DNA from: Candidatus Enterousia sp. | Lineage (GTDB): Bacteria; Pseudomonadota; Alphaproteobacteria; Rs-D84 | Direction: 5' to 3' | Length of the DNA: 64,000 bases | Assembly (NCBI GenBank): GCA_045613315.1 | Contig: JAZLAV010000007.1 | Location: 1,785-65,784 of the forward strand | In this document: positions 10,051 to 39,788 of the stretch, in pieces | Numbering within the stretch: position 1 is the first letter of the stretch | Layout: every line of letters starts with the position of its first letter | Notes under the pieces: generated by a model | Databases searched by the model: none | Told to the model about the DNA's origin: nothing | Seen by the model: only the letters and a program-made list of their open reading frames with translations | Made by a program: the position numbers and the translations under genes

Positions 10051-10138
10051 AATGTTAAATGGTACGCATAAATCGGGCTGGAATCAAGTTGCAATTTATG
10101 ATAATATTTGTATAAAGTAAAAATTGGGTGTAATGCAT

Positions 10139-10903: not shown

Positions 10904-10916
10904 TGGGGTGAAAGAT

Positions 10917-11579: not shown

Positions 11580-11585
11580 TCCAAA

Positions 11586-12509
11586 ATGAAAAGATGTCCG
11601 TTTTTTGGTATTTGTGGTGGATGTAAATATGATTTTACATCGGCCGATTATCACGAACAAAAATTGTCCGTGTTGCGCGATTTACCGGTAATGGATAATC
11701 CCCGGTGGGTCGATGCGGGAACGCGTCGCCGTGGGGATTTTTGCTTTGCCGGGAATCAGTTTGGTTTATTCGAAACGCGGTCCAAAAACATTGTACCGGT
11801 GCGCAACTGTCCAAATATGGTACCGGAAATAAATGCGATTTTGCCACGCGTGGCAACGTTGCCGTGGGGCGCGTCGGGGTCTTGTTTAATTACCGCATGT
11901 GAAAACGGAATTGATATTGTGATAAATGCCGATGTGCCGTATTTTACGCCCGAATTCAAATCGGCGGCGTCGCAGGTCGGCGCGATTCGCGTTGTGTGGA
12001 ACGATAAAACAGTTGTCCAATTTGCCCTGCCAATAATCAAATTTGATGATGTTGCGGTGGATTATCCACCAAATGCGTTTTTACAACCCGGTCGCCAGGG
12101 CGAATCGATATTGCGCGAAATGGTTGTTGATGCGGTTGGCCAATCTGGACATGTTGCAGATTTGTTTTGTGGCCTGGGCAGTTTTACATTTGCAACGGGT
12201 GCCGATGGATTTGATATTGTTGGGGCGGGGGTCAAACGCGATTTGTTCGCGCATCCGTTAACCGTCGGGATGCTGAAAAAATATGATTGTGTGATAATGG
12301 ATCCGCCTCGCGCGGGCGCATTGGCCCAGTGTCGTGAATTGGTTAAATCGGATGTTCCACGCATTGTATATGTTTCGTGTAATCCGCAAACATTTGTGCG
12401 TGATATGAACATATTGGTGCGTGGTGGGTATAAGATGTGTAAACTGGTTCCAGTTGACCAATTTGTTGGCAGTGCCCATTGGGAATTATTTTCTGTATTT
12501 GATAAATAA
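11586..12509 (+). CDS. RumA/TrmA-family RNA (uracil-5)-methyltransferase
   Basis: N-terminal Fe-S cysteines CPFFGICGGCKY, SAM-fold motifs DLFCGLGSF and VIMDPPRAG, and catalytic YVSCNPQT. Confidence 0.8.
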   Translation: MKRCPFFGICGGCKYDFTSADYHEQKLSVLRDLPVMDNPRWVDAGTRRRGDFCFAGNQFGLFETRSKNIVPVRNCPNMVPEINAILPRVATLPWGASGSCLITACENGIDIVINADVPYFTPEFKSAASQVGAIRVVWNDKTVVQFALPIIKFDDVAVDYPPNAFLQPGRQGESILREMVVDAVGQSGHVADLFCGLGSFTFATGADGFDIVGAGVKRDLFAHPLTVGMLKKYDCVIMDPPRAGALAQCRELVKSDVPRIVYVSCNPQTFVRDMNILVRGGYKMCKLVPVDQFVGSAHWELFSVFDK

Positions 12510-12539
12510 AAAAACGCCGCCGTTTCCGGCGGTGTTTTC
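12507..12539. terminator. bidirectional intrinsic terminator
   Basis: ACGCCGCCG-TTTC-CGGCGGTGT stem with an A-run before and a T-run after. It serves the methyltransferase gene (+) and the sRNA candidate (-). Confidence 0.75.
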
Positions 12540-12680
12540 CGAATGCTCTTGAAAGGAAGGAAAGGAGAAAAAGAAATAGAGCATTCTTAACTTGTGTGGG
12601 GCCCAGAGCTCAGAGGAGAGAGAATGTAGGAGGGAGTCTGAATCCCTGAACCCCGTGTCGTTGGGTTTAACCCCTTGGAC
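12510..12680 (-). ncRNA. candidate small RNA (about 170 nt) with anti-Shine-Dalgarno tracts
   Basis: Minus-strand promoter TTGACA (12715-12710), 17-nt spacer, TATATT (12692-12687), and the terminator at 12507-12539. No ORF. It has a GAAUGCUCU/AGAGCAUUC stem with a C/U-rich loop plus CUCCCUCCU and CUCUCCUCU tracts. Confidence 0.5.
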
Positions 12681-12882
12681 AGTTATAATATAAGACAACA
12701 AAAGTTATTTGTCAAGTATTTTGTCAAAAATATTTTTTGGGTGGGTTTTTGTTGCTGCGTTTTTGTGAAAAATGCCGAAAATTCAATATGTTCCTAGGAA
12801 ATGGTGCCTGTTGCGAAACGGGGGGTGTTGGCATAAAATCGTTGGTGAATAAAAAATTTTTTGGCAAAACGGGGGGGACAAA

Positions 12883-13128
12883 ATGACACATGACGAAGTA
12901 TGGCGCGCCATAGAACGATTCGCAACGGAACACGGGATGACTTGTTCGGGGTTGGCAAAATGCAGCGGGTTGGACCCAACAACATTTAATCGCAGTAAAC
13001 GTTGGTCCCGCGCCGGCCAGCCACGTTGGCCATCGACCAACAGTATTTCCAAGATTTTGGCGTCAACGGGATCTTCTATACGCGATTTTACCAAATATAT
13101 TGATATGCCACCGCCCGAACACGAATAA
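12883..13128 (+). CDS. HTH DNA-binding protein resembling the N-terminal domain of S24 (CI/LexA-like) phage repressors, without a peptidase domain
   Basis: The pattern VWRAIERFATEHGMTCSGLAKCSGLDPTTFNRSKR...RWPSTNSISKILASTGSS is typical of alphaproteobacterial prophage-repressor N-termini. At only 81 aa it has no S24 domain. Confidence 0.6.
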   Translation: MTHDEVWRAIERFATEHGMTCSGLAKCSGLDPTTFNRSKRWSRAGQPRWPSTNSISKILASTGSSIRDFTKYIDMPPPEHE

Positions 13129-13134
13129 ATTTAT

Positions 13135-13638
13135 ATGGTTGATATTATTTACCACAATGTTTGTATGTTGTGGTATTTTTTATGGACAACGCAAAATATA
13201 TACTTTATTCTGAACGGTATGTTAAAAGGGATTCGGGTTTATTCCGCCGACAATGTGTGGCGTAACATATTGCGTGATTTGGGCGCAACGGTGTTGGATG
13301 CGCCAACAAATACGGATGTGAACCTGGATTCGTTAAGTATAACGATGCCGATATCCCCATTGGATTTAAAGGCCGCACTTATTACGGCGGCGGACAATTC
13401 GCAAATTATTCGTGATATATTCGGCGCAAATGCACATTTGTCTTATTTGCACACGCAGATTGTTGCGCAACTTTATAAATCGGGCGGTATGGATACAACA
13501 CAACTGAAAACGTCGTTGGGATACAGTGCGGATGCCACAACACATACGGTTGATACGGCAATTTACCAATTGCGTAAAATGTACGGACACAATTTTATCG
13601 TTAATGAAAACGGGGTGTACAAGATTGGTAAATTATAG
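13135..13638 (+). CDS. OmpR/PhoB-type winged-helix DNA-binding protein with a non-receiver N-terminus
   Basis: The C-terminus THTVDTAIYQLRKMYGHNFIVNENGVYKI matches the trans_reg_C recognition helix and wing. The start is uncertain; the alternative is ATG 13219. Confidence 0.55.
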   Translation: MVDIIYHNVCMLWYFLWTTQNIYFILNGMLKGIRVYSADNVWRNILRDLGATVLDAPTNTDVNLDSLSITMPISPLDLKAALITAADNSQIIRDIFGANAHLSYLHTQIVAQLYKSGGMDTTQLKTSLGYSADATTHTVDTAIYQLRKMYGHNFIVNENGVYKIGKL

Positions 13639-14296
13639 GGTTGTTTCTTTTGATAAAATCCCCAGTACGCAAACATATGCGCACGATATGATTGCGGCGG
13701 GAATTGGCGCGGATCATGTTGTGGTTTTGGCGGATGCACAATCGGCTGGACGTGGTCGTTATCAACGCAAATGGGTTTCGCATCATGGTAATTTGTATGC
13801 AAGTTTTATATACGCATGTGAAGAACGTGACGCGCGGTTGGCATATTCGGTTGGCGTCGCGATTGCAGAAACGCTGATTTCGTTTGGTGTTCATGCAACA
13901 ATTAAATGGCCGAACGATATTTTGGTCGATGACAAGAAAATTTCTGGTACACTTATTGAATATTCTGGACGGTTTGTTGTTGTTGGAATTGGTATAAACA
14001 TAAAAACGAATCCCACGGTTCGGGCGTCGTATAAAACGACCAAAATGGATAACTTTGTATCCGTCACCCGGGACGAGGTGTTAAATAAACTTATGCGTAA
14101 TCTGGATCGGTGGCGCAACGCTGATTTTCGTGTCGTGCGTGCACGGTGGACCGAATTGGCAACGGGACTTAATCACAATGTAAAATATCAGGGCGAATCG
14201 GCCGAGCTGATCGGAATAAATGAAAATGGTGCACTTATATTGCGCCGAAAAAGCCGTTATTTATTGGTGTATGGCGATGAAATAATAATGGAATAG
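13604..14296 (+). CDS. birA: biotin-[acetyl-CoA-carboxylase] ligase (group I, no HTH)
   Basis: FDKIPSTQTYA, the signature GRGRYQRKWVS, and KWPNDILVDDKKISGTLIE. The start is uncertain between ATG 13604 and TTG 13625. Confidence 0.85.
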   Translation: MKTGCTRLVNYRVVSFDKIPSTQTYAHDMIAAGIGADHVVVLADAQSAGRGRYQRKWVSHHGNLYASFIYACEERDARLAYSVGVAIAETLISFGVHATIKWPNDILVDDKKISGTLIEYSGRFVVVGIGINIKTNPTVRASYKTTKMDNFVSVTRDEVLNKLMRNLDRWRNADFRVVRARWTELATGLNHNVKYQGESAELIGINENGALILRRKSRYLLVYGDEIIME

Positions 14297-14307
14297 AAAT
14301 ATACATC

Positions 14308-14336
14308 TTGACTTTTATGTCAATTTGTGATATTAT
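14308..14336 (+). promoter_or_regulatory. sigma70-type promoter of the phage-like operon
   Basis: TTGACT (14308-14313), 17-nt spacer, TATTAT (14331-14336). Confidence 0.6.
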
Positions 14337-14362
14337 GTGAGACATCAAAGATAGAGATTTTG

Positions 14363-14418
14363 TCCGCACGAGAGTGTGGATTTTTTAATTCCGCGACCCA
14401 TTATCGGGTCGCTTTTTT
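14363..14418 (+). terminator. two tandem intrinsic terminators in the operon leader
   Basis: Hairpin 1 is TCCGCAC-GAGA-GTGTGGA followed by TTTTTT (14363-14386). Hairpin 2 is GCGACCC-ATTATC-GGGTCGC followed by TTTTTT (14393-14418). Both lie between the promoter and the first RBS. Confidence 0.65.
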
Positions 14419-14445
14419 ATTTACCAATCCACAGGAGAAAGAATA

Positions 14446-14865
14446 ATGGAATTGAACATAATATCAAATCCAGATGTCACCCAATGTCCCGCGTATAAAA
14501 TTGCGCGCGTTATATATGCAGAAACATATATGCCAACATTACCAGCAGTCGAAGCGATGGCGTCAATGATTTCCAATATTGCCAAACAATCAAATCGTGA
14601 TGTTGTTGATGTCGTTGATGATGTTGATATATTCGGGGCCGTTGATTCGAAATCGCCGCGTCATAAATATATGAACGTTTCGGTATCGAACCGCGCGTTC
14701 CAGATGTGTGTGCGTGTTGCAAAACGTATGTTGCGTGGTGTGTTGCCGGATAAATGTTCCGGCGCAACGCGATTCCATCGGGCGGACGAATTGCCTGCGT
14801 GGGCGATGGCACGTGGATATATTGCCGATATTGATGGATTACTGTTTTACATAATGGGGGAATGA
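14446..14865 (+). CDS. cell-wall hydrolase (SleB/Hydrolase_2-like), putative endolysin
   Basis: ARVIYAET..., ...GATRFHRADELPAWA... and YIADIDGLLFY follow the SleB-type hydrolase pattern. RBS is AGGAGAAAG. Confidence 0.6.
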   Translation: MELNIISNPDVTQCPAYKIARVIYAETYMPTLPAVEAMASMISNIAKQSNRDVVDVVDDVDIFGAVDSKSPRHKYMNVSVSNRAFQMCVRVAKRMLRGVLPDKCSGATRFHRADELPAWAMARGYIADIDGLLFYIMGE

Positions 14866-15059
14866 TGCGGGGTGATTTTATTCGTGGCGGAATGTTGTCA
14901 GATAAAAAATCATATGTGATGTTTGGGGTCGGTGTATTATCCGCCATTGCATCATATTTGGTTGGCGACACCGATGTATTCGTTATGTGCCAGGCAATAT
15001 TTACATTGGCGGGTATGTATTTTATTCATAAATCTGATAATACAAACAAAGGGAAATGA
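14862..15059 (+). CDS. holin-like small membrane protein (2 TM)
   Basis: Its start overlaps the hydrolase stop (ATGA). Two hydrophobic segments, VMFGVGVLSAIASYLVG and VFVMCQAIFTLAGMYFI, and a charged C-terminus. Confidence 0.5.
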   Translation: MMRGDFIRGGMLSDKKSYVMFGVGVLSAIASYLVGDTDVFVMCQAIFTLAGMYFIHKSDNTNKGK

Positions 15060-15060
15060 T

Positions 15061-15717
15061 ATGGAAAAAATACCAGAAAAGTTTTTGAACGGTGATGGTA
15101 CACTTAATTCAGATTCGTTATTAAAATCATATAATGAATTGGAAAAGAAAATTGGAACAATGGTGTCCGTGCCAAATTCTGAATCAGATGACGCGACACG
15201 TATGCGGTTTAATCGCGCCATTGGCGTTCCAGATGATACGGCACAATATCCAACCAACGATATGTTTGATGACGAATCGGTTCGACAAAAATTTCGTGAA
15301 ATCGGATTAACCTGTCCACAAGTTGAGCAAATATACAAAATTGCGAACGAATATTTATTACCGCTGTTATCAGATTTATTTGCAATGCAAAATGAAACAA
15401 ATGCATACCAAGAATTGAAAAATTTTTTCGGGTCCACTGAAAAAATGAATGACGCATTACATGCCATAGATGCGTTCGGAAATAAATTTTTACCACACGA
15501 TGCATTTGATGTGTTGTGTTCTACACCTGCCGGAATCCAAGGCGTGTACAAGATGATGCAATCGATGGAACCACATGTTGAAACACAAAAAAATGAAAAC
15601 GAAAATTTAACAGATAATGATTTACGACGTATGATGCGCGATCCAAAATATTGGCGTGACAATGATCCAGAATATGTTCGCAAAATCGAAAATGGTTTTA
15701 AAAAATTGTATTCATAA
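15061..15717 (+). CDS. acidic scaffolding-like protein
   Basis: ATG lies 2 nt after the holin-like stop. The protein is acidic and predicted helical, and it sits before the capsid gene as T7 gp9 does. Confidence 0.45.
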   Translation: MEKIPEKFLNGDGTLNSDSLLKSYNELEKKIGTMVSVPNSESDDATRMRFNRAIGVPDDTAQYPTNDMFDDESVRQKFREIGLTCPQVEQIYKIANEYLLPLLSDLFAMQNETNAYQELKNFFGSTEKMNDALHAIDAFGNKFLPHDAFDVLCSTPAGIQGVYKMMQSMEPHVETQKNENENLTDNDLRRMMRDPKYWRDNDPEYVRKIENGFKKLYS

Positions 15718-15825
15718 AATAAAAAAATTCACTTTCTGCTTTACTATTTTTTTTCTTTCATATAAAATGGAAGTAAGAACAAAGAAAAATTTTGTTCTAT
15801 CCAAAAACAATGAAAGGAGAGAAGA

Positions 15826-16125
15826 ATGGCATTCACATTCTTGAAACCAGCTGCGAAAAAAACTGCTGCAAAGCCAGCGGCGAAACCGGCTGCAAAAAAA
15901 CCGGCTGCTAAAAAAGTAGCTGCAAAAAAACCAGCTGCAAAGAAACCAGTTGCAAAGAAACCAGTTGCAAAAAAACCGGTTGCTAAAAAAGCAGTTGCAA
16001 AGAAACCAGTTGCTAAAAAAGTAGCTGCGAAAAAGCCAGTTGCAAAAAAAGCCGCGGTTAAAAAACCAGTTGCTAAAAAAGCAGTTGCGAAAAAACCATG
16101 CGCAAAATGTGCAAAGAAAAAATAA
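15826..16125 (+). CDS. Lys/Ala/Pro-rich histone H1-like basic protein
   Basis: RBS AAAGGAGAGAAGA. 99 aa made almost entirely of (P/V)AAKK-type repeats, ending [10 protein letters not shown]. Confidence 0.7.
15841..16110 (+). repeat. coding tandem repeat (about 15-nt units, AAGAAACCAGTTGCA-like)
   Basis: Visible repetition of GCAAAGAAACCAGTT / GCTAAAAAAGCAGTT units encoding the [10 protein letters not shown] repeats. Confidence 0.8.
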
Positions 16126-16155
16126 TAAATACCACAATTGTGGTTGTTATTTTCG

Positions 16156-16179
16156 GGGCCGGTTTTCCGGCCCTTTTTT
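16156..16179 (+). terminator. intrinsic terminator
   Basis: GGGCCGG-TTTT-CCGGCCC followed by TTTTTT. Confidence 0.7.
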
Positions 16180-16365
16180 GTTAAAACAATATCAGTCAGA
16201 TTTGCGCAGGTCTGACTGATACTGTTGTTGGACAATCCCGTTTGGGGACCCGTTTGAATTTTTGTTTGTGGCACAGTTTTTCTGTACAACCAAAAACAAA
16301 ATATAAATTGTCGTGCGATGTTTAATCGCACTTTTTCATTTTATAAACACAAAAGGGGTGTATCT

Positions 16366-30000: not shown

Positions 30001-30150
30001 TTAGCAACCACCGGTGATATTGCCGATGATTTTAGAAATTGAAATATCTTTGTGCAGCAAGAAATCATATTCGCAATTACCCTGTTTATATGAACCAGTG
30101 CATGCAGCCAATGTCAAAACGGCGAACAATGCCAACATTACTTTTTTCAT
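30001..30150 (-). CDS. small lipoprotein (49 aa)
   Basis: Internal Met of ORF 30001..30372. It reads MKKVMLALFAVLTLAACTGS... with a lipobox, and the RBS is AGGAGACATC. Confidence 0.5.
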   Translation of the reverse strand: MKKVMLALFAVLTLAACTGSYKQGNCEYDFLLHKDISISKIIGNITGGC

Positions 30151-30580: not shown

Positions 30581-30870
30581 TTTATTTCATAAATGACAGC
30601 GTTTTTTTTACCTGCCCCGTGGGGGCGGGACAGATTTACTTACGAACGAATGTGAGTTAGTAAATCTTGGGTGGGGTGACATATTGCGTATTCTGGTAAT
30701 CCGTCTTCGCTTCGCCGAGACTTCGCCCCACCCAAACGTTGCTAAATGTCTGGCGACATTAAGCCAACAGTATCCCGCCCCAATGGGGCGGGTTAAAAAT
30801 GTTCATTATGCAACAAGGTGTTTTTCAAACAATCAGAAAACTGGGCAGGATAAAACCAAAGGAGCAATGC

Positions 30871-31125
30871 ATGTCCAGACAAATTCAAATTCGGCGCGGC
30901 ACCGCGGCGGAACACGAAAACTTTACAGGTGCGATTGGTGAAATAACAATGGATACGACAAACAAAACAATCCGCGTGCATGACGGCGCAACCGCGGGCG
31001 GCACAGTATTGGCAAAACAAAGCGAAATACCGACCGGTTTTTTATCGGTCCCCAATTATGAAAATGGAAGTTCGTATACATTGGGGAATGTATTTACATC
31101 AGACGGGTGGTTAAAATATGTGTAA
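30871..31125 (+). CDS. phage tail-fibre protein fragment with an Mtd-N-type N-terminal domain
   Basis: MSRQIQIRRGTAAEHENFTGAIGEITMDTTNKTIRVHDGATAGG. RBS is AAAGGAGCAATGC. It stops after 84 aa. Confidence 0.6.
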   Translation: MSRQIQIRRGTAAEHENFTGAIGEITMDTTNKTIRVHDGATAGGTVLAKQSEIPTGFLSVPNYENGSSYTLGNVFTSDGWLKYV

Positions 31126-31127
31126 AA

Positions 31128-31343
31128 ATGGGCGTTGCGGGTGCCACACATGATTGCACACTGCAGATAAAAAACCAAAATGGCACGATTTTAACATCTT
31201 TTAACTACTGCGCTCAATATTTGCAAGTAATTGACATAATGATACCGGTAAAAAGTGGATTAAAATGCGAATGCGTGGGTAGTTATAACGAACTGGTTCT
31301 TACTTTTTTCATTGCTAGTTATAAAAATAACTGTCGTCATTGA
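31128..31343 (+). CDS. small Cys-containing protein, possibly the frameshifted distal part of the fibre gene
   Basis: The ORF 31107..31343 overlaps the end of the fibre fragment in another frame. It is beta-rich (CTLQIKNQNGTILTSFNYC...GLKCECVGSYNELVLTF). Confidence 0.35.
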   Translation: MGVAGATHDCTLQIKNQNGTILTSFNYCAQYLQVIDIMIPVKSGLKCECVGSYNELVLTFFIASYKNNCRH

Positions 31344-31357
31344 CGACAGTTATTGGT

Positions 31358-32344
31358 TTACATGAATTGCAATATATTTTTTAAATCTGATACAAACTTG
31401 TCATGATCATTTTCAATAACAGATCTGTAATATGCAAAATCATCAATTTTTGTGTCATAGTTTTTCATACAATCGCGAATTTGATTGATAATAGCATGAA
31501 TGTTGTTTTCTGTGACATCAAACTTGTATTCTGGTTTTATTGGTACATCACCATAAAATACCGCAGAACCACGGTTCCCAACAATAATAATATTGCCCTG
31601 GATGGCGGCTTCGCGGGGGAAACGATCTTTGCCTGGATGATTACCAAAATCTATATATACTTTACTTTCTGCACAAAGCTCTCGAACCTGTTCTGGGGTC
31701 ATGTTTTCTAATGGACGAAAAGTCAAATCTGGTGCCGATTCAATTAACTTTTTTGTAAAATCAAACCCTTTCTTTGGGTTGTATATAACGATGTCTTTTC
31801 GTTTATTGGATTTTAAATAGGCTTTTGTGGCAAAAAAATCATCCCTTAGATAATCCGCAAGGAATGCTTTGTTGCGAACGTGTTTGCGTGCTAAAAAGTC
31901 CATGGCGTATTCAGATTGTGCTAAATGTAAAATATTTTGATCGGATAAACTGATTATGTGTGGATTCTTTTTGTGTGTAATAAATGCCCAAATACGTTTT
32001 TTAAGATTTATCTTTGGTAAATGTTCAAAATAATTATCAACACTTAGCCACCAAAATACCCGTTGGGCAAATTTTACAGAGTTTAAAATATTTGCGAATA
32101 ATTCTGGCACAATGACAACATTGTGTGGCGCATCTTGTATATCAAATACATACGGCACATTAAATATTTTGAACCGTTCGCCAACAACATCTTTTTGATT
32201 TTTGACATCTGTATAATACATAACTGCGTTTACATTTAATTTGCGCATTTCATAGGCCAAGACGTGTAATGCCTCGGTCCCGCCCGTTTGAAACGAAGCG
32301 GGACATGCGATATAAACGATTGTATTATCATAAATCTGTATCAT
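31358..32344 (-). CDS. glycosyltransferase (GT-B fold, group-1-like)
   Basis: The C-terminal IDFGNHPGKDRFPREAAIQGNIIIVGNRGS resembles the GT4 E-x7-E region. 328 aa. Confidence 0.5.
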   Translation of the reverse strand: MIQIYDNTIVYIACPASFQTGGTEALHVLAYEMRKLNVNAVMYYTDVKNQKDVVGERFKIFNVPYVFDIQDAPHNVVIVPELFANILNSVKFAQRVFWWLSVDNYFEHLPKINLKKRIWAFITHKKNPHIISLSDQNILHLAQSEYAMDFLARKHVRNKAFLADYLRDDFFATKAYLKSNKRKDIVIYNPKKGFDFTKKLIESAPDLTFRPLENMTPEQVRELCAESKVYIDFGNHPGKDRFPREAAIQGNIIIVGNRGSAVFYGDVPIKPEYKFDVTENNIHAIINQIRDCMKNYDTKIDDFAYYRSVIENDHDKFVSDLKNILQFM

Positions 32345-32345
32345 C

Positions 32346-32903
32346 TTATTTTCTCTTGGCTTTTAAGACAGGTATAACCCCAAACAATTTATAACTTGTG
32401 TTGCTCTCGGTTTGTTTTATTGTCATTAATGGAATAAAATTAAACAAATAAATCTTATGCTTGGACGTGGGTTTGGAATCTGTTTGCATTTGTTTTTCTA
32501 TCCAGCGTAATCTTGCTTCGTTTTCGTAATTAATGTCCGAACAAATAGAAATAGGATAATTTAAGTTCAAAAACTTTTGATAGTAAGCCTTGATTTGTGG
32601 CATCATATCTTTGTTTTCTTCTCTATGAGAATTATACAGCAAGTGTACCATCAATGCTTTTGGACAAACAACGATGTTTGGTTTATGTTCTTTACACCAC
32701 ATGTGCATTCTGTGTTCGTCTTCATGTGGGGATGCGTTTTCTACAACATTCCAGAATCCTTTTTTAAACAGAATACAGTTAATAGACATTCGTTGTTCGG
32801 GATCAAAGCAGAAATCCGCTTGGTTGCTGCATTTGTTAACATATTCTGGCACATTTAATGTGGTGTGCATGTGCAACCATCTTGCAATATACGGGTAACG
32901 CAT
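32346..32903 (-). CDS. hypothetical protein (possible glycosyltransferase-related, possibly truncated)
   Basis: Lies 1 nt upstream of the GT gene. The longer ORF (to 32996) overlaps the next gene, so I used Met32. No firm family. Confidence 0.35.
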   Translation of the reverse strand: MRYPYIARWLHMHTTLNVPEYVNKCSNQADFCFDPEQRMSINCILFKKGFWNVVENASPHEDEHRMHMWCKEHKPNIVVCPKALMVHLLYNSHREENKDMMPQIKAYYQKFLNLNYPISICSDINYENEARLRWIEKQMQTDSKPTSKHKIYLFNFIPLMTIKQTESNTSYKLFGVIPVLKAKRK

Positions 32904-32955
32904 AATTGTGCCGGCACCCCCACGGATACCGGTTATAAATTGTATGGAACATAAA

Positions 32956-33744
32956 TTAAAATGCGTATGGTTTTGCGTTGAAATGTTCGCGCGCACCCGT
33001 CACATTTGCCGCCGCATCGTTCGCATGGCGACCATTGTCAACCAATTCCAATGCGCCAAAATATGCCGTCATCATCGGATCATAGGCGTTGTTGGATGTT
33101 AACCACCGATCCGTGCCGGAATTCGGGGTGCCGTATTTATCAACCACACCCGACCAAAATGTTAAAATCTTTTTTTGACGTTGGTCCGCGAATTTGGCCG
33201 CCGTGCCTTCGGTTTCATTGGCGTCATTGTTATATTCCACACGCCAAACACGGTTGTCGGTCGCGTTGCTGGTAAAAAATACGTCAATTGTTTCGCCCGT
33301 CAATTCCCGCACCAGATGATATTCCGATACATACATTAAACCACGGTTTTGTGCCAGGCTGCGAATACACTGTTCCAATTGGGCGGGAACAAAAATGTTT
33401 TGCTGTCTGCATTCGTAATCCAAATTATACCGCCAATCGGTCGGAATTGTATATACAACCGCATCAATCGCACGTGGTGCATAAATTCCGCCATCCGCAA
33501 ACAATGTGCGTACATCGTCAAATGACATTCCCAACATAATTCCGGCAATGTCGAACGATTCCACCGCGCGTGGCCATGCACCCGCGTTTATCGAATATGA
33601 ATCGGTCGTAATGTCGGGATCCACACTGTCGGCGATGGCAAAATTGTCAAAATCAAACGGGTCGTCATATTCGGCACCATTCGCCACGGGCGCAAATGCC
33701 GCAAACACAAACAATAAAAATATCAACCGTTTAATCATTTGCAA
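32956..33744 (-). CDS. secreted protein, function unknown
   Basis: Signal peptide MQMIKRLIFLLFVFAAFAPVANGA. It overlaps the upstream gene by 14 nt, which suggests an operon. Confidence 0.55.
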   Translation of the reverse strand: MQMIKRLIFLLFVFAAFAPVANGAEYDDPFDFDNFAIADSVDPDITTDSYSINAGAWPRAVESFDIAGIMLGMSFDDVRTLFADGGIYAPRAIDAVVYTIPTDWRYNLDYECRQQNIFVPAQLEQCIRSLAQNRGLMYVSEYHLVRELTGETIDVFFTSNATDNRVWRVEYNNDANETEGTAAKFADQRQKKILTFWSGVVDKYGTPNSGTDRWLTSNNAYDPMMTAYFGALELVDNGRHANDAAANVTGAREHFNAKPYAF

Positions 33745-34402
33745 TTCGTTCCAAATCAGTCACCAAAAACCGGAATATAACCGCGGGGTCACATTCGGTT
33801 TCAAACCTATTATAACCGCATTTTAAATATTTTCCAATATCTAATGCGGCGCCCCCCAATGTGTCGCGCAGCCCCGGTTCAAATAAAACATTCATTTGTA
33901 ATATGCCACGCGTTATTTGGGGCATCGCCGACATATCATTTGGAACGGTCCATGTTTTTAACACATATGGCACAATCCAATAATCCCCGTCCATATATAT
34001 TTCACCGTTAATATCAACGGTACGCATCATATTGTTTTCGGCCATCGATTTTATACCCGCGGCTTCGCCCCGAATCCACGCGTCAAAAACCGCCGGTGTG
34101 GACATACGGGCCAATGTCGAACGTGACGTACAACGATTTTCAATGTTGTTCGGGTCCGGAACCGCATAGAAATATTCCGTCACATATTTTTTTATCAGCA
34201 TTTCACGCATTGTTGTTTCGTTCATATCCGACAATCGTACCGGATTGCCCGGGCGCATAACCGACAATTCGTTTGTCTGGAAAAAATAGGTTTCAATGTT
34301 TTCCATGGCACCGGTGTCATAAATCGCAGATGCCAAAAACAGCATCGCCATCGTCAGAATCAGCAACAAAATTCCCGCAAAAAATGTGATGATTCTTCTC
34401 AT
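33731..34402 (-). CDS. bitopic membrane protein, VirB8-like architecture (putative)
   Basis: N-terminal TM ITFFAGILLLILTMAMLFLA plus a periplasmic domain of about 190 aa. It is in tandem with, and overlaps by 4 nt, a similarly built gene. Confidence 0.35.
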   Translation of the reverse strand: MRRIITFFAGILLLILTMAMLFLASAIYDTGAMENIETYFFQTNELSVMRPGNPVRLSDMNETTMREMLIKKYVTEYFYAVPDPNNIENRCTSRSTLARMSTPAVFDAWIRGEAAGIKSMAENNMMRTVDINGEIYMDGDYWIVPYVLKTWTVPNDMSAMPQITRGILQMNVLFEPGLRDTLGGAALDIGKYLKCGYNRFETECDPAVIFRFLVTDLERIAND

Positions 34403-35097
34403 TGGCTGATCCGGTATGTGTTAAAGTTGTTGATGTAATACCCCCGCGTCATGGGATAGTATTTCATATTGCGCGCCACCGTGGCATATCCAACAATGTC
34501 CATGGCCGCCACCCCACCATCGGTCAAAATTGTTAACTGGATGCGCCACGTGCCCCCGTCGGACGAAACGGCACCAATCGGATCGATGCGTATGGATTCG
34601 GTCACGGGAAACCATGTCGCGCCCGCAGATTCCATCGCGATATAATTCGGCAAAACACTTTCTGAAAAACGATAAAACAAATCGTCGCCCGACATACAGT
34701 ATATCGCACAATGACGCGTGTCGCCCGTGTCACCCGTACATTGTTCGCGTGCACATTTTGTTTCCCAAACGGCAACATTTCGATTGTGATTGCGCGAAAT
34801 ACCAAACCAATTTCGTGTGAATCGCCAAACCAACGATTGTTGGAATAACTGGGCATCGGTCATTTCCAGTGTCGGTGTTTCCGTGCCCGCCATAACAATT
34901 CGCCATTGGTCGTTAATTCCGTCCGTCGCCAGTATATATGGTTCGACACGTGCGGAACGAATTGTCCATATTAACATCGCGCAAAGAAAGATTATTACAA
35001 GAAAAGCAGACATAATTCCAATACCCATCGCACGGGAAACAGCAATGCTTTTCCCCGCCGGAAATGTCGGTGTATTAAAATCGTCTGGATAATTCAA
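34399..35097 (-). CDS. bitopic membrane protein, VirB8-like (putative)
   Basis: Short cytoplasmic N-terminus, TM GIGIMSAFLVIIFLCAMLIW, then EPYILATDGIN..., LFQQSLVWRFTRNWFGI and C-terminal RGYYINNFNTYRI, paralleling the VirB8 PYVV.VD / YV..RE.Y / NPLGF.V..YR pattern. Confidence 0.4.
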   Translation of the reverse strand: MNYPDDFNTPTFPAGKSIAVSRAMGIGIMSAFLVIIFLCAMLIWTIRSARVEPYILATDGINDQWRIVMAGTETPTLEMTDAQLFQQSLVWRFTRNWFGISRNHNRNVAVWETKCAREQCTGDTGDTRHCAIYCMSGDDLFYRFSESVLPNYIAMESAGATWFPVTESIRIDPIGAVSSDGGTWRIQLTILTDGGVAAMDIVGYATVARNMKYYPMTRGYYINNFNTYRISQ

Positions 35098-35127
35098 TGT
35101 CGTCCCCCCAACAACAATGTTTTAAAA

Positions 35128-35274
35128 CTAGGCCTGGTAAACCATAATGCACGCGCAAGGGCTTAATTTCAGTTCATTATTGTCGTATCCAACGCCAACC
35201 GGTTCACGGTCGTAAACCTGGCCACAGCCGGCCAAAGCCAACGCAACAAATACGCCCAGAATCACTTTTTTCAT
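35128..35274 (-). CDS. small lipoprotein (48 aa), VirB7-like (putative)
   Basis: Too short for the ORF track. Strong RBS AAGGGGGAAATGATT. It reads MKKVILGVFVALALAGCGQVYDREPVGVGYDNNELKLSPCACIMVYQA, with a lipobox and a K-x-SPC motif as in ComB7/VirB7-type lipoproteins (recalled). Confidence 0.4.
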   Translation of the reverse strand: MKKVILGVFVALALAGCGQVYDREPVGVGYDNNELKLSPCACIMVYQA

Positions 35275-35406
35275 AATCATTTCCCCCTTAGATTATTTTG
35301 ATTATAAAAAAATTACGCGCGCCGTGTCAAATGATTATATGGCATAAAAAATTCCAGGGCGGCCAAATCGTCCGTCCTGGAATTTGGTTTTAATAAAACA
35401 ATGTTT

Positions 35407-36660
35407 TTATTTGTCCGATGGGTTTGCAAATGAATAATTCATTTTCAAATGATCGGCATTGTATGTCCCGTTCATAATGGCCAATGTGTCTTCCAAAATA
35501 ACCAATTCTTCGTTGGTGGCAATCATAAACAGTTTTATACGGCTGTCGGTGGTGCTGATTTCTGCTTCGGCGACCCCTTTGCGACCAACCGCGGCGTCGT
35601 TTTTCGTGGTATCCAATTTGATTCCCATTGGTTCCAGGTTTTCCAAACAACGTTGACGGATATATGGATCGTTTTCACCACCGCCGGCGGTAAACACAAT
35701 TGCGTCAACATTACCGTCCAATGTTGCCATATATGCGCCAATCGTTTGGCGAACACTTAAAATCTGTTTTTCCAACGCCATACGGCATTTTTCGTCAGTT
35801 GACATATTGCCTTCGACATCGCGCAGGTCGGAAAATTTGCACATGCCCAACAGTCCCGATTCCTTGTTCAGGTGGGTTGTTGCCTGGGCCGAGGTCAGCC
35901 CCAATTTATCCATCGCATATAACACGGCGGACGTATCCAAATTGCCCGGGCGAGTTCCCATAACCAAACCGGTAATCGGTGTGAACCCCATGGATGTATC
36001 AAAACATTTACCGTTTTTAATTGCCGCGACCGATGCGCCCGAACCCAAATGCACGGTAATCAAATTGCATTCGGATGCCGGTTTGTTCAGCATAACCGCC
36101 GCGCGTTTGGAAACATACAGGTGTGATGTGCCATGATAACCGTATTTGCGGACTTTCAGTTGTGTATACCATGCTTCTGGCACAGCATAACGGAAAACGT
36201 GTTCCGGCATTGTTTGATGGAACGCGGTATCAAAAACCGCCACCTGTTTGGCGTTTGGCATCATTTGCAATGCGGTGTTTATGCCCGCCAACGCCGGTGG
36301 ATTGTGCAACGGTGCGATTTCTGCATATTCACTTATTTTGCGGACAACATCATCGGTAATTTCGCACGAAGACGTCAATTCCGCCCCACCCAGAAGAACG
36401 CGGTGCCCAACACCCCGAATTTCGTTGGTGTCGATGGACGCTTCGCGTAATAATTTCATAACTTCGCTTAATGCTTCGCCATGGTCGCGCATCGGAACGG
36501 TGCGTTCGACTTTGTGTCCGTCAGGATATTTTTGAGAAATTACCGAATCCGGCAATTTGATTTTTTCGGCCAAACCACTTAATACCACGTCCCGTGTGTC
36601 GGCGTCAAACAATTTGTATTTAAGCGATGAAGAACCGCAATTTAACGACAAAACATACAT
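35407..36660 (-). CDS. ackA: acetate kinase
   Basis: MYVLSLNCGSSSLKYKLF, HRVLLGG, YGYHGTSH and EELVI. The start is at the internal Met after AAAAGGAAAGCAA. Confidence 0.92.
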   Translation of the reverse strand: MYVLSLNCGSSSLKYKLFDADTRDVVLSGLAEKIKLPDSVISQKYPDGHKVERTVPMRDHGEALSEVMKLLREASIDTNEIRGVGHRVLLGGAELTSSCEITDDVVRKISEYAEIAPLHNPPALAGINTALQMMPNAKQVAVFDTAFHQTMPEHVFRYAVPEAWYTQLKVRKYGYHGTSHLYVSKRAAVMLNKPASECNLITVHLGSGASVAAIKNGKCFDTSMGFTPITGLVMGTRPGNLDTSAVLYAMDKLGLTSAQATTHLNKESGLLGMCKFSDLRDVEGNMSTDEKCRMALEKQILSVRQTIGAYMATLDGNVDAIVFTAGGGENDPYIRQRCLENLEPMGIKLDTTKNDAAVGRKGVAEAEISTTDSRIKLFMIATNEELVILEDTLAIMNGTYNADHLKMNYSFANPSDK

Positions 36661-36722
36661 TTGCTTTCCTTTTTTATATTTATTTACGACGCGGTCCAGG
36701 TTAGCACCAGTTGTTTTCATTT

Positions 36723-37295
36723 TCAACAATAAATGCGGATTTTTAACCGCCATTCATCATTGGCGACATTTGTTTTTACCCCTGTTGATTTGTGAACCAC
36801 CCAAAACGTCCCGCCACCAATGAAAAGTCGCATATGTAATCCATTGTCGTCGATATATGTGTAATACATTGGGCGTGTATATTCGCCAATGCCGAATGCG
36901 GTTACTTCGTCGCCGGCGGCATATCCTGCGGCATCGGTTTGGCATACCAAAATCGGTCGAATAATAACCGGGTCTGTTGTTATGTTGTCAAAAACATATT
37001 CTGCGTATGCGGTGCCATGTATGGTGACGGGAGTACTGGTATATTCATTGAAAGGGGCGGGGGCAACGCGCGTAACAATTTCCGCCCATTTTGTATCCGA
37101 TACGGAATCGATATCAAAAGGTGTTGTGGTATCTGGTATTTCATCGGCGCGCGCCAACGCGACCCCACCCAGTGTTGCACCATCGTGGACACGAATTGTT
37201 TTTGCAGTTGTATCATAGGTTATTTCACCGACCAATCCGGTAAAATTATCGTTTTGTGCGCCTGTGCCGCGCCGAATTTGTAAAACTCGTGACAT
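36723..37295 (-). CDS. phage tail-fibre / receptor-binding protein with an Mtd-N-type N-terminal domain
   Basis: MSRVLQIRRGTGAQNDNFTGLVGEITYDTTAKTIRVHDGATLGG followed by a beta-rich domain of about 145 aa. It is a paralogue of 30871..31125. Confidence 0.6.
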   Translation of the reverse strand: MSRVLQIRRGTGAQNDNFTGLVGEITYDTTAKTIRVHDGATLGGVALARADEIPDTTTPFDIDSVSDTKWAEIVTRVAPAPFNEYTSTPVTIHGTAYAEYVFDNITTDPVIIRPILVCQTDAAGYAAGDEVTAFGIGEYTRPMYYTYIDDNGLHMRLFIGGGTFWVVHKSTGVKTNVANDEWRLKIRIYC

Positions 37296-37338
37296 ATGTT
37301 ATCCTTTGGTTTAACAAGGTTTGATTAAATGTTTGGAA

Positions 37339-37407
37339 ATAAAAAATGGCGCCGAACAATCGGTGCCAAAGTGGTTGCATTATACCATAAAATCAGGTAA
37401 AAATCAA
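37339..37407 (-). promoter_or_regulatory. promoter followed by a terminator-like leader hairpin, upstream of the fibre gene
   Basis: On the minus strand: TTGATT (37407-37402), 17-nt spacer, TATAAT (37384-37379), then GGCACCGA-TTGT-TCGGCGCC (37367-37348) followed by ATTTTTTATTT. Confidence 0.55.
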
Positions 37408-39788
37408 GCGGCATATGAATAACCGGATAAATAATCGTTGATGATTGTGCACCGTTGGGAATTAAATGCCCCCTGGGCCGATTTTTTACTGCGTGGCAAC
37501 CAATTATACATTTGCCCCATGTGTGAATCGCGTCCGGTTTCCAACATGTCCCAATATGCCATCAGTTCCCTGTATTTGTCCTGGTGTTTTTGGTCCCATT
37601 GGGCCAGTTCGTTATTCAGTTTTGTTTTGTGTTGATTTAATTCCTGGATTCGTTCGGATGCGTCGTGCCATTGTTGCAGTTCTTGGGCCTGGGAATCGGC
37701 GTTGCGTTTGTCGGTTTCGTATTGGGTAACCATATTTTGTTGCGTGGCCCAGTTTGGTGACGTTGTTATGGCGTTCAATTCGTTTGTATAATTGTTCAAA
37801 TTGGCCGTCGCATCATTTAATTGTTGCGTTATTTCCTGGATTTGTGTCCAAATTTCAACCTGGCGCGCATTTCTTGCCGCCGGTGGCATACCATTATATG
37901 TGGCGGGATTACGAAGGGCCTGTTCCAAACTATTTTTTTCGGTTTGTAATGTTGTTATATCATTATGCAATTGCGGTAATGTGTGATTGTTAAGTTCGTC
38001 GAACCGTTGCACATTTGTATTTGCCGTTTGGAAAGCAGGGTCGTTGGCGGTGTTAGCCAATTGTTGTTGGATTCGATCATTCCCAGATTTTAATGTCCCG
38101 TAATTCGCATCGGTAATCGGATTGGTGCGGGTTTGATTTATATTTACCTGGATATTGCGTTGGTTTGTGATTTCAGTATTTGCATTGGTGATTTCGGTAT
38201 TCACATACCGTTCATAATTTGCGCGGTCCGTGGTATTTTGTGTTGCCCATGCATTTTGTGCGCTGGCAATGCGGCCACGTTGACCATTAAATTTGCTGCC
38301 CGACAAACGAATTTCGTTACCAATAATTGTGATGCCGTACCCGATGCCCATAAATGCGGCCTTGATACTTTTGTCCAAAGCGTTGCTGACAAATTGAACA
38401 CCCTGGTTTTTGTTCCACGACAATTTGCCGTCTGAAAACAGTGTTATATCCGATTTGGCCATTGCATCCATTGTTTTGCTGGTGGTGGCGCCATATTTTA
38501 TGACGGATAACACTTCCATTGTGGTTTTGGCTTCGTCTATTTTGCCTTCGCGAACCGCCTTCATAATAATTTCGCCAACAATGGCACGCATTTGACGACC
38601 GTTTTGTAACGCGCCGGCGAATGCCCGTTTCATTGTGCCCGCCATTTCGTTCAGTGTCTTTTCAAACCATTCGAAATGTTTGGTTGCCGTTGGCGATTTA
38701 TATAATAAACTTTTTTTGATATCCGCGGATTTATCCAAAACCCCCTTGATACCATCGGTTGGTTTAATCTTGGCACTGTTGATGGCGCCGACGATGTTTT
38801 CGGCGTTTTTGGAAAAGTACAGGCGATCGCCGTGGAATTTAAGATATTTATCCAATAAATTATCGTATGTGTCATCCGCCCATTTTGATATCTGTTGCCA
38901 TGGGGTTAATTCGTCGTAGCGTTTCGGCGGGACATAATCATCGCTGTTTTTATCATCGTATTTTAATTTTTCGCGTGCGGCGGTTATGCGTCCCGATATT
39001 TTGCCGTCGTCATAGTTTCTGAATACATTAAAAATCTTGTCCTTTTTATACAGGACATTAAGCATCGTTTGGTGGTTGCGTTTAAAATTGTCCAACTTTG
39101 TCGGGTCAATGGTGGTGTCGGCAAATGCGTTGTTCGCAATATCCGACAGGTCTATTCCACTAAACCATCCCGCAACCGTGGGATCTTCGGTGCATTTCCA
39201 CGACAAAAAACCGATAATTTGTATCAGTTGCGCCTGAAACTTGGGGTCTGAATTATATTTTTTGGACCGCAATCCAGATTTTAAATCAGAAAACGATGGT
39301 TCGTTGTATCCGCCCTGGCGCAGGACGTATTCTAATTGCGAATTGGCACCCAACACATTGTTTATGGCGTCCAGTTGTGTGTCGTATCCGGGGGCAACCT
39401 GGGCGTTGGAAAAAAGATGTGTCGCGGACGCACCAAAATATTCGTTGATAAAACCACGGGCATCATCATTTATTTCTTCGTCGCCACGCGCCAATGACGC
39501 AGCCATGCCACGTAATGCCTTTTGATATGCCTTGAAAAGCTTTGCCCATTCGTCGTCGGTTAAATGATAATTCCCGTTGGGGTCCATTGGGTCGGGCAAA
39601 TCGTTCTGGACGTATCGGCCGGTCCCGTCGTCGTGCATAAGTTTTTTCTTCCAATCCTTCATGTTGCCACGAAAATCGTCAGATTTTACATATACATCAT
39701 ATTGGGCGCGAATTTCAGCCGGCATCGCGTTGAAACGCAGCTGCATATAATATTGCAATAAAAAATCTTTCATACCGACGTCTGCCAT
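37404..39788 (-). CDS. large (794 aa) protein with a Q/N-rich coiled-coil C-terminal half, function unknown (candidate secreted effector)
   Basis: No signal peptide or TM. An internal short repeat NTEITNANTEITNQ. Long heptad-like Q/N/T-rich stretch. No family recognised. Confidence 0.6.
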   Translation of the reverse strand: MADVGMKDFLLQYYMQLRFNAMPAEIRAQYDVYVKSDDFRGNMKDWKKKLMHDDGTGRYVQNDLPDPMDPNGNYHLTDDEWAKLFKAYQKALRGMAASLARGDEEINDDARGFINEYFGASATHLFSNAQVAPGYDTQLDAINNVLGANSQLEYVLRQGGYNEPSFSDLKSGLRSKKYNSDPKFQAQLIQIIGFLSWKCTEDPTVAGWFSGIDLSDIANNAFADTTIDPTKLDNFKRNHQTMLNVLYKKDKIFNVFRNYDDGKISGRITAAREKLKYDDKNSDDYVPPKRYDELTPWQQISKWADDTYDNLLDKYLKFHGDRLYFSKNAENIVGAINSAKIKPTDGIKGVLDKSADIKKSLLYKSPTATKHFEWFEKTLNEMAGTMKRAFAGALQNGRQMRAIVGEIIMKAVREGKIDEAKTTMEVLSVIKYGATTSKTMDAMAKSDITLFSDGKLSWNKNQGVQFVSNALDKSIKAAFMGIGYGITIIGNEIRLSGSKFNGQRGRIASAQNAWATQNTTDRANYERYVNTEITNANTEITNQRNIQVNINQTRTNPITDANYGTLKSGNDRIQQQLANTANDPAFQTANTNVQRFDELNNHTLPQLHNDITTLQTEKNSLEQALRNPATYNGMPPAARNARQVEIWTQIQEITQQLNDATANLNNYTNELNAITTSPNWATQQNMVTQYETDKRNADSQAQELQQWHDASERIQELNQHKTKLNNELAQWDQKHQDKYRELMAYWDMLETGRDSHMGQMYNWLPRSKKSAQGAFNSQRCTIINDYLSGYSYAA

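Follow-up and report, generated by a model that had tools for sequence, protein, structure and literature searches.

P22-type seroconverting podoviruses have a tailspike gene that adjoins the gtrABC operon for O-antigen modification. Among T7-like phages, receptor-binding proteins (RBPs) carried on an adapter or an anchor branch have been described for K1-5, K1E and SP6 (gp37 and two tailspikes), for G7C (gp66 and gp63.1), and for the KP32, KP34 and JD001 groups of Klebsiella phages (PMC6872550; PMC13352976). In the JD001 group the docking domain has about 70 amino acids (aa), and the anchor is without a T4gp10-like domain (PMC6872550). Here we analyzed two facing genes, fibA and fibB, in a stretch of 64,000 nucleotides (nt) of Candidatus Enterousia sp. 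DNA, the whole of which is called the window, together with a third gene of the same genome, fibC, and a gene called stub. Upstream of fibA lies a T7-type structural cluster, in which Pfam recognized a scaffold, a capsid, tubular protein A and a terminase fragment. On balance, we favor the reading that fibA, fibB and fibC encode short receptor-binding tips that dock on the stub through the Mtd_N domain, which would be an adapter-type two-piece fibre with dispersed, co-gated tips.

The genome that holds the window (G000, order Rs-D84) is an assembly of 826 kb with a completeness of 94.5%. A study of reduced-genome gut lineages left phage genes unmentioned (PMC12306168). The features on which the argument turns are the following, in window coordinates.

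30871..31125, plus strand: fibA N-terminal open reading frame (ORF), 84 aa, with the Mtd_N head and the beginning of a type-2 tip; it stops at a stop codon made by a frameshift
37295..36723, minus strand: fibB, 190 aa, with the Mtd_N head, one helix and a conserved beta-sandwich tip
20133..20678, plus strand: stub, a 181-aa tip-less tail-fibre anchor in the particle cluster, with a T7 gp17-type N-domain (residues 1-105), a helical stalk and an invariant C-terminal tail

The Mtd_N head and its tips

The original prediction held that the N-termini of fibA and fibB are homologous, and it saw in them the N-terminal signature of Mtd, the tropism protein of Bordetella phage BPP-1. Both points were borne out. 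BLASTP aligned the two proteins with 38/54 residues identical (70%, E 9e-26), and both scored above the gathering cut-off of Pfam family Mtd_N (PF18454, 26.3 bits), fibA with 61.2 bits (E 8.9e-17) and fibB with 44.1 bits (E 1.9e-11). The third paralogue, fibC (162 aa, on contig C18 of G000), scored 60.4 bits. Both fibA and fibB also matched the PHROG tail family phrog_9648 (fibA E 1.9e-12). A profile of 35 fibB homologues matched the solved BPP-1 Mtd structures 1yu0-1yu4 with E 1.9e-15, so the signature reflects true homology. When the fibB model was searched with Foldseek, Mtd entries were top-ranked, and the only matches in the PDB were the N-termini of Mtd and HylP. By these comparisons, the N-termini of fibA and fibB are a genuine phage fibre module. 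No signal peptide was evident by eye in the N-termini of the Mtd_N proteins, for which no predictor was run.

The placement of the genes at 4 and 10 kb past the particle cluster was also close to what was measured. From the cluster end at about 27.2 kb, the distance was 3.7 kb to fibA and 10.1 kb to fibB, with about 5.5 kb between the genes.

The AlphaFold2 (AF2) model of fibB had a predicted local distance difference test score (pLDDT) of 84.7, and showed the strands of Mtd_N, a single helix and, at residues 80-190, a beta-sandwich predicted with confidence. This sandwich resembled podophage tail-fibre tips in BFVD, such as that of Pseudomonas phage phi2 (D7GN32, query TM-score (TMq) 0.41; range 0.41-0.47), and the fibB tip had no match in the PDB. 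The fibC tip matched Gp53-like_C across the whole profile, with an E-value of 0.0019 that did not reach the cut-off. In most proteins of the fibA or fibC type (A/C-type), the variable end comes after a collar (DYV.E.Q.PTAENNYTWYRKYKSGWVEQGG). One type of Mtd_N head was found to carry at least three tip types, and the fibA tip belongs to a rarer type without detectable relatives. In T1-type fibres the mean pairwise identity was 66% in the head, 72% in the collar and 21% in the distal tip, and in the fibB family it was 75% in the head and 37% in the remainder. The suggestion that the C-termini are hypervariable across strains thus applied to the distal tips of the A/C-type, but not to fibB, which is conserved across the genus. 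A diversity-generating retroelement (DGR) was considered and was excluded because a reverse transcriptase was not found (no RVT_1 match in the 826-kb assembly); the tip is a beta-sandwich and not a C-type lectin. According to the proposed mechanism, fibA, fibB and fibC would encode short receptor-binding tip subunits for a host-fixed T7-like particle, each with an Mtd_N head of about 50 aa followed by a small beta-sandwich tip.

The stub and its co-occurrence with Mtd_N

Capsid presence was scored in a sample of 41 genomes, including 24 of the same genus. All 24 had the capsid, and six of them had no Mtd_N gene; five of the genomes with a capsid and no Mtd_N gene were well assembled (G003, G004, G012, G018 and G020). 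A search of these five with fibC found the T1 tip in G003, G018 and G020, on proteins of 271-355 aa with a different N-terminus, which gave a weak match to Pfam Phage_T7_tail (E 1.9e-4). In these fused fibres, a coiled coil lies between a gp17-N domain and the T1 tip. In G004, a gp17-N protein of 302 aa was present outside the cluster. When a profile was made from the N-termini of the fused fibres, it found the stub of the window with an E-value of 7.8e-25, and counterparts were present in 23/24 genus genomes.

Several homologues of the stub bear a precomputed match to PF03906. In the PDB, the stub profile found the fibre chain in the tail complex of LME-1 (9efk, E 6e-7), as well as the N-termini of Klebsiella phage Dpo31/36. 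In the AF2 model of the stub, residues 1-70 formed a beta-sandwich (pLDDT about 90), accompanied by three helices and a disordered C-terminal tail. Foldseek matched this model to the N-terminal fibre anchors of LME-1, Carin-1, P-SCSP1u, Kp7 and PhiM1, and to the N-terminus of T7 gp17 (7boz and 7ey9, probability 1.00); 9efk, 8ck1 and 7y22 were among the entries matched. By sequence and model, the stub is a tail-fibre anchor without a receptor-binding part. Residues 162-181 (DYG..PAP.EN.DDYG.L, 20620-20678) were near-invariant in 30 homologues that were otherwise 65-88% identical. A tail that is invariant yet predicted to be disordered is typical of a peptide that takes on its fold when it binds a partner, as a docking peptide would.

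Mtd_N and the stub-specific C-terminal domain (window 20448-20675) were then scored in 201 genus genomes. Both were present in 109 and neither in 83, while eight had Mtd_N only and one had the stub only. Five of the eight genomes with Mtd_N only were less than 86% complete, and another of them, G044, has a decayed cluster. The stub was cleanly missing between a 118-aa gene and the terL-N gene in G003, G004, G012, G018 and G020, where the gap was 15-30 nt (measured in G003, G004 and G012). In G003, fibB was likewise cleanly missing between the 794-aa gene described below and ackA. For the capsid, 5 state changes were needed on the best tree, and at least 2 when only strongly supported branches were considered. 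The independent contrasts of stub and Mtd_N numbered from 1 (well-supported branches) to 4 (best tree), and all were concordant, on a tree that was poorly resolved.

Absence of the loci from genomes that carry the cluster had been named in the original prediction as a point that would speak against a phage role, and such absence does occur, since 84/201 genus genomes were without Mtd_N. The five Mtd_N-less genomes inspected were also without the stub, and three of them had fused fibres; therefore, the link between the genes and the particle was strengthened and not broken. Split and fused fibres have the same anchor domain and the T1 tip, and differ in the middle, which is the stalk and Mtd_N head in one and a coiled coil in the other. 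A stub and an Mtd_N protein would be the two-gene equivalent of a fused fibre, and the pattern in the genomes is as expected from this.

The stub N-domain would bind the tail, and trimers of the tip proteins would dock through Mtd_N onto the distal stub. The result would be two-piece fibres with up to three alternative specificities, those of the conserved fibB and of the hypervariable fibA- and fibC-type tips. Physical docking on the stub, co-expression and glycan receptors are what we infer from the genes.

An alternative is that the Mtd_N proteins are parts of the particle attached elsewhere than on the stub, at the nozzle or as head spikes like GhsA/B of the Rhodobacter capsulatus gene transfer agent (RcGTA), and that the stub acts on its own as a short fibre or plug. 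Docking on the stub was deduced from co-occurrence and the stub has no recognizable branching domain, both of which leave room for this arrangement, and in RcGTA the head spikes and the tail fibres are separate and are encoded away from the main cluster (PMC5026251, PMC10218006). However, the stub and the Mtd_N genes were gained and lost together, and where both were missing the same tip was covalently fused to the same anchor domain. The invariant but disordered stub tail also fits a docking peptide. We consider attachment off the stub unlikely.

Gene positions, leaders and glycan neighbors

The link of both genes to the particle cluster stood up to the comparison with other genomes: the gene positions in relatives and a common leader support it, in addition to the co-occurrence with the fibre anchor of the cluster. 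Loci were compared by tblastn of the window proteins against 20-kb stretches of relatives. In G006, G013, G017 and G024 the A/C-type gene was the last gene of the cluster, directly after the portal gene and an 86-aa gene, with yraN as the sole intervening gene in G017; in G015 it was about 10 kb from the capsid gene in contig coordinates. G000 differs in that ppiD-tpiA-grpE is inserted between the cluster end and yraN. By position and by its 5' untranslated region (5'UTR), fibA is orthologous to the cluster-end fibre genes of relatives.

The surroundings of fibB were also conserved. A 225-aa gene on the opposite strand is followed by the string 794-aa gene, fibB and ackA, and the 794-aa gene was directly 5' of the fibB-type gene in 17/23 genus genomes that possess it.

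37404..39788, minus strand: 794-aa orphan protein, with a globular N-terminal half and a Q/N-rich coiled coil; the usual upstream neighbor of fibB

The fibB protein aligned over its full length with the counterparts in relatives, which were 47-52% identical to that of G000, and 241 full-length homologues of about 190 aa were found in the protein collection. Homologues of fibB occur in metagenome-assembled genomes of Candidatus Enterousia sp. and of uncultured Alphaproteobacteria. The 794-aa protein had no family, PHROG or PDB match. As a virion core protein it is a doubtful candidate; it has no such match, its promoter is ungated, and it is also present in Mtd_N-less genomes.

Other arrangements were seen in single genomes. 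In G019 (L064, G019:C35:24000-37651, about 10242-12100), a fibB-type gene lies directly after the portal gene and a 112-aa gene and directly before ackA; this fusion of the two bracketing loci hints at an ancestral order of cluster, fibre and ackA. In G044 (L116, G044:C1:30000-49999, about 9990-16200), the cluster is decayed, and its capsid, cut to 191 aa, directly adjoins a fragment of terL-N. The genes for tube A and B, the stub and the portal have been lost there along with the 118-aa gene, and an Mtd_N fibre gene is still present after the terL-C fragment; therefore, the particle cluster is not kept in every lineage. Two tandem Mtd_N genes on the same strand, about 690 nt apart, were found at G165:C34:775-1574, and up to five Mtd_N genes were present in other genus genomes.

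The leaders and the remaining features of the fibA locus are as follows.

37330..37407, minus strand: fibB leader, with TTGATT (37407-37402), N17, TGgTATAAT (37387-37379), a hairpin (37367-37348) and T6ATTTCCAAA (37346-37332)
14308..14427, plus strand: particle-operon leader, with a promoter and two terminators; the tail of the second terminator, TTTTTTATTTACCAA, matches the fibre-gene leaders
30590..30830, plus strand: about 240 bp of GC-rich palindromes inserted in the fibA leader (inverted repeats I2 and I6), which by alignment are not at the same site in G005
30835..30870, plus strand: fibA 5'UTR (TTCAAACAATCAGAAAA...AAAGGAG), common to the cluster-end fibre genes of relatives (upstream regions L002, L006, L009, L050)
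31107/31128..31343, plus strand: fibA C-terminal ORF, which is read in the -1 frame and codes for the remainder of the tip (71-78 aa, rich in Cys and in beta structure); it overlaps the first ORF by 19 nt
31327..31353, no strand: perfect hairpin between the convergent fibA and 328-aa genes, a likely two-way terminator, with the fibA stop codon within its loop
31358..32996, minus strand: two strain-specific genes (328 aa and 216 aa), convergent with fibA and probably glycan-related, which form a cassette with the fibA tip and are missing from G005

The leaders of fibB and fibC had the same elements in the same order, namely TTGATT, N17, (TG)TATAAT, about 12 nt, a GC hairpin, TTTTTTATT(T)CCAAA and a ribosome-binding site. 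In both, a strong promoter thus runs at once into an intrinsic terminator, as it does in the leader of the particle operon. The pattern of the leader tail had 6 matches in the 826-kb assembly, 3 of which were the leaders of fibB, fibC and the particle operon, while shuffled genomes gave 0-1. A promoter followed by a terminator, often by two, precedes most of the dispersed Mtd_N genes of relatives, and was found ahead of 7/7 fused fibre genes examined. Such a gate was not present at the cluster-end fibre genes, including fibA, for which no promoter-plus-terminator gate was found in the comparison of upstream regions. These genes have in common the short 5'UTR TTCAAACAATCAGAAAA..AAAGGA instead, as would fit transcription that reads through from the operon. 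A terminator behind a promoter is of use only where termination can be overridden under some condition, so the dispersed tips look like members of the same gated regulon. From these leaders we infer co-expression of the dispersed tips with the particle operon. It is proposed that fibB and fibC would be made only on termination override, together with the particle; the fibA-type gene of relatives is the last one after the portal and is without a gate.

One of the six leader-tail matches, TTTTTTTATTACCAA behind a hairpin, precedes a 148-aa gene at G000:C21:16523-17000 (minus strand), which has an M15-peptidase-like H-x6-D motif and no Pfam match. This gene may belong to the particle regulon, for example as an endolysin, or may merely lie 3' of the terminator of the upstream gene.

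G005, a close relative of G000 whose capsid is 90% identical, has at the fibA site yraN, a fibre gene with a T1 tip, and then the 262-aa gene described below. The nucleotide homology between G000 and G005 spans yraN and the Mtd_N module and ends right after the codons for 'SEIP', past which G000 carries a different tip and the 328- and 216-aa genes. Exchange of C-terminal parts had been suggested between fibA and fibB; exchange was found from one lineage to another, where the Mtd_N module ends, but not between these two copies. Specificity would shift by recombination at this module end, sometimes along with neighboring glycan genes, and not by inversion.

The 328-aa gene had a homologue in 1/200 genus genomes, beside a UDP-galactopyranose mutase gene (GLF) and a gene of glycosyltransferase (GT) family 1, and both strain-specific genes are probably glycan-related. 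They had been called glycosyltransferases in the original prediction; with no Pfam or NCBIfam match, that label was unconfirmed. Over 21 A/C-type fibre loci, the downstream neighbor was convergent in 17, and one GT2 cluster had members in 11 of the downstream blocks. The representative downstream blocks tested were all glycan genes (GDP-mannose dehydratase, GT11, DegT, GT1, GT2 and GT4), and the fused fibres face GT2 and an acetyltransferase, WavE, or GT8. Of the glycosyltransferase loci of G000, which number only about five, two abut fibA and fibC. Tip similarity was 0.66 bits per residue where at least two downstream clusters were shared, 0.55 where one was shared and 0.36 where none was shared. 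Of the two best tip pairs, G014-G019 has three downstream clusters in common and G006-G022 has two. These figures, which are uncorrected for relatedness, are suggestive of tips being more alike where downstream gene clusters are shared.

The hypervariable tips and the facing glycan or lipopolysaccharide (LPS) genes might form linked 'lock-and-key' cassettes, in which the tip recognizes the sugar made by its neighbors or the sugar masks the receptor. We put this forward as a tentative idea that is somewhat doubtful. If it is true, a lineage that gains a new glycotype would gain the matching particle specificity in one recombination event, and particle-mediated DNA delivery would be confined to cells of the same glycotype, a built-in kin recognition.

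The fibA copy of G000 is more probably a pseudogene than the product of an assembly error. Programmed frameshifting was thought unlikely, as the overlap of the two ORFs is without an X XXY YYZ heptamer and its only runs are A4 and A5. The read-through protein was based only on the ORF layout and a motif resemblance seen by eye (PDY.NG / P.DG), and a word-based search found no relatives of it. HMMER found no homologue of the second ORF in 1.84 billion representative proteins, just two short repetitive matches. When the fibA tip was compared by BLASTP with the type-2 tip of G010, a convincing alignment was limited to the head. The palindrome block of the leader was searched for as a repeated mobile element, and only 18-nt matches were found elsewhere in the G000 genome. 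A small DUF4223 lipoprotein gene (E 1e-12) lies between grpE and yraN (window 30001-30147, minus strand).

Several points weigh against the docking of the three tips on the stub. The docking was deduced from co-occurrence alone, and the independent transitions on the poorly resolved capsid tree number from 1 (well-supported branches) to 4-5 (best tree), so the raw Fisher value of 8e-46 is inflated by shared ancestry and is not a probability. The fairly complete genomes G044, G097 and G191 have Mtd_N without a match to the stub C-domain, and only G044 is explained, by its decayed cluster. The stalk of the stub was modelled with low confidence, and a T4gp10-like branching domain was not detected in the stub by Pfam or in its AF2 model. 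The position of fibB between the orphan 794-aa gene, with its ungated promoter, and ackA is an odd spot for a virion gene. Finally, fibA is frameshifted, has the palindrome block in its leader and is separated from the cluster by ppiD-tpiA-grpE, and may therefore be dead in G000.

Some of these points would also be expected if the Mtd_N genes were orphan prophage remnants, left from unrelated phages and kept by chance or, for example, as a surface lectin: the genes sit among housekeeping genes, fibA is broken, and the 84 Mtd_N-less genomes do without them. Chance retention accords poorly, however, with the 241 homologues of fibB, which are of constant length, and with its position, which is kept in most genus genomes. 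Remnants of unrelated phages would also not be expected to co-occur almost perfectly with the stub of the cluster, to have a leader in common with the particle operon, or to stand at the cluster end, as the A-type gene does in several relatives. The T1 tip is fused to a gp17-type anchor in other genomes, and the lack of a signal peptide evident by eye speaks against a surface lectin. We regard an origin as orphan remnants as quite improbable, and prefer tips that dock on the stub.

The intervening segment and comparison with known systems

Between the strain-specific genes and fibB, the window holds two further features.

32956..35280, minus strand: host envelope operon outside the fibre system, coding for a 262-aa secreted protein, 223- and 232-aa bitopic proteins and a 50-aa lipoprotein
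35407..36753, minus strand: ackA (acetate kinase), 448-aa ORF, Pfam Acetate_kinase E 2.6e-135 over residues 33-419

The label of ackA in the original prediction was right, as the Pfam match shows. Its true start is probably a Met near 36660, because the domain begins at residue 33 and the ackA proteins of relatives have 413-428 aa; the 31-nt overlap of ackA and fibB is likely not real. The envelope genes had been described as VirB7/VirB8-like, but no VirB8 or other family match was obtained, and in two relatives they lie directly after bamA. In G004, G012 and G005 their order was bamA, 232, 223, 262 and yraN. In G004 and G012 they come after frr-uppS-cdsA-rseP-bamA and before yraN, and in G005 they abut the fibre gene. 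The 50-aa lipoprotein gave a weak, sub-threshold match to LPAM_1. Ahead of its gene is a perfect 12/12 sigma-70 consensus promoter (TTGACA, N18, TATAAT; 35301-35330, minus strand). Judged from gene content and order, host operons and strain-specific genes make up a mosaic between fibA and fibB.

The original prediction described fibA and fibB as inverted repeats of about 130 bp, roughly 70% identical, that could allow inversion of the segment between them. The nucleotide alignment agreed with the description of the repeats, with 69% identity over 130 nt and 65% over 162 nt. If recombination at these repeats flipped the 5.5 kb in the manner of the Mu G or P1 C segment, each tip would come to lie behind the promoter and head of the other gene. 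The geometry permits this, with convergent genes whose homologous 5' ends lie at the outer edges, and a small serine recombinase is encoded elsewhere in the genome. However, the longest exact run common to fibA and fibB was 17 nt, and the identity at codon positions 1, 2 and 3 was 74%, 80% and 41%, so the repeats have the look of old paralogues that are constrained as proteins, without sign of homogenization. The pair was not among the 25 longest inverted repeats listed. No recombinase domain was found in any ORF from 30.8 to 39.8 kb, that is, inside or beside the segment. A flip would carry ackA and the conserved envelope operon along, and would merely exchange two heads that are 70% identical. 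In the relatives examined, each of the two genes has a conserved locus of its own, often with the two on different contigs, and none of these relatives showed an inverted or chimeric arrangement. A flip of the segment is extremely improbable, and the exchange of tips at the module end between lineages is preferred.

The two serine recombinases of G000 are confined to contigs C17 and C18. The small one (G000:C17:20515-21204, 229 aa) lies between genes for huge surface proteins (1468 and 622 aa; C17:16000-23062). This module could serve phase variation or be a mobile element, and is unrelated to the fibre locus.

The whole genus of these small-genome gut bacteria keeps a T7-like particle cluster, and what the particle binds, and how its specificity evolves, decide whether, and between which cells, DNA moves. 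The likely receptor-binding parts have now been identified; they appear to be split from their anchor, scattered in the chromosome, placed under a common transcriptional gate, and varied by module exchange beside surface-glycan loci. The presence of a stub with Mtd_N tips or of fused fibres gives a simple genomic signature by which hundreds of uncultured genomes can be sorted, and the stub, the three tips and the leader motif are concrete experimental handles. If our reading is right, the adapter-type receptor-binding architecture of phages takes in a domesticated element, and the Mtd_N domain as well.

Among known systems, the invertible segments Mu G (Gin), P1 C (Cin) and e14 P (Pin) resemble the locus in having alternative fibre C-termini in opposite orientation. 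Unlike these segments, the window is without near-identical crossover sites, an adjacent invertase or a shared constant part, and fibA and fibB are complete genes, each with its own start codon.

The Mtd protein of BPP-1 (1yu0-1yu4; PMC2408619) has a homologous N-terminal domain and determines tropism, likewise in short-tailed phages. In contrast to Mtd, the proteins described here are half its size or less and have no C-type-lectin variable domain, and there is no reverse transcriptase or template repeat; module exchange takes the place of the DGR.

RcGTA (PMC5026251, PMC10218006) is also a domesticated particle with fibre and spike genes outside the main cluster. These are co-regulated with it, as the dispersed tips here may be, and its receptor is a surface polysaccharide of the capsule, as a glycan would be here. 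The RcGTA particle resembles a siphovirus and is controlled by CtrA, GafA and quorum sensing, whereas the particle described here is T7-like, with a leader in which a promoter is followed by a terminator. In addition, the fibre genes here abut glycan genes, and gene transfer is putative.

As in the P22-type phages, a receptor-binding gene adjoins genes that alter the glycan it likely recognizes. The neighbors here are whole glycan or LPS blocks (GT1, GT2, GT4, GT8, GT11, WavE, GDP-mannose dehydratase and DegT) and not a three-gene cassette.

Compared with the adapter systems of T7-like phages, the docking module here is Mtd_N, and binding is proposed from the genes alone. The RBP genes are scattered in the chromosome and not in the structural module, and fibB and fibC each have a gated leader; the particle genes are host-fixed and do not belong to a free phage, and the tips have about 110-140 aa past the head, without a depolymerase domain. 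The likeness lies in a gp17-type anchor that is without its own receptor-binding part and carries, or here would carry, separately encoded RBPs; as in the JD001 group, the anchor, here the stub, is without a T4gp10-like domain. In both cases, the RBPs, here the putative tips, have a conserved N-terminal docking module and diverse C-termini, with several RBPs per particle.

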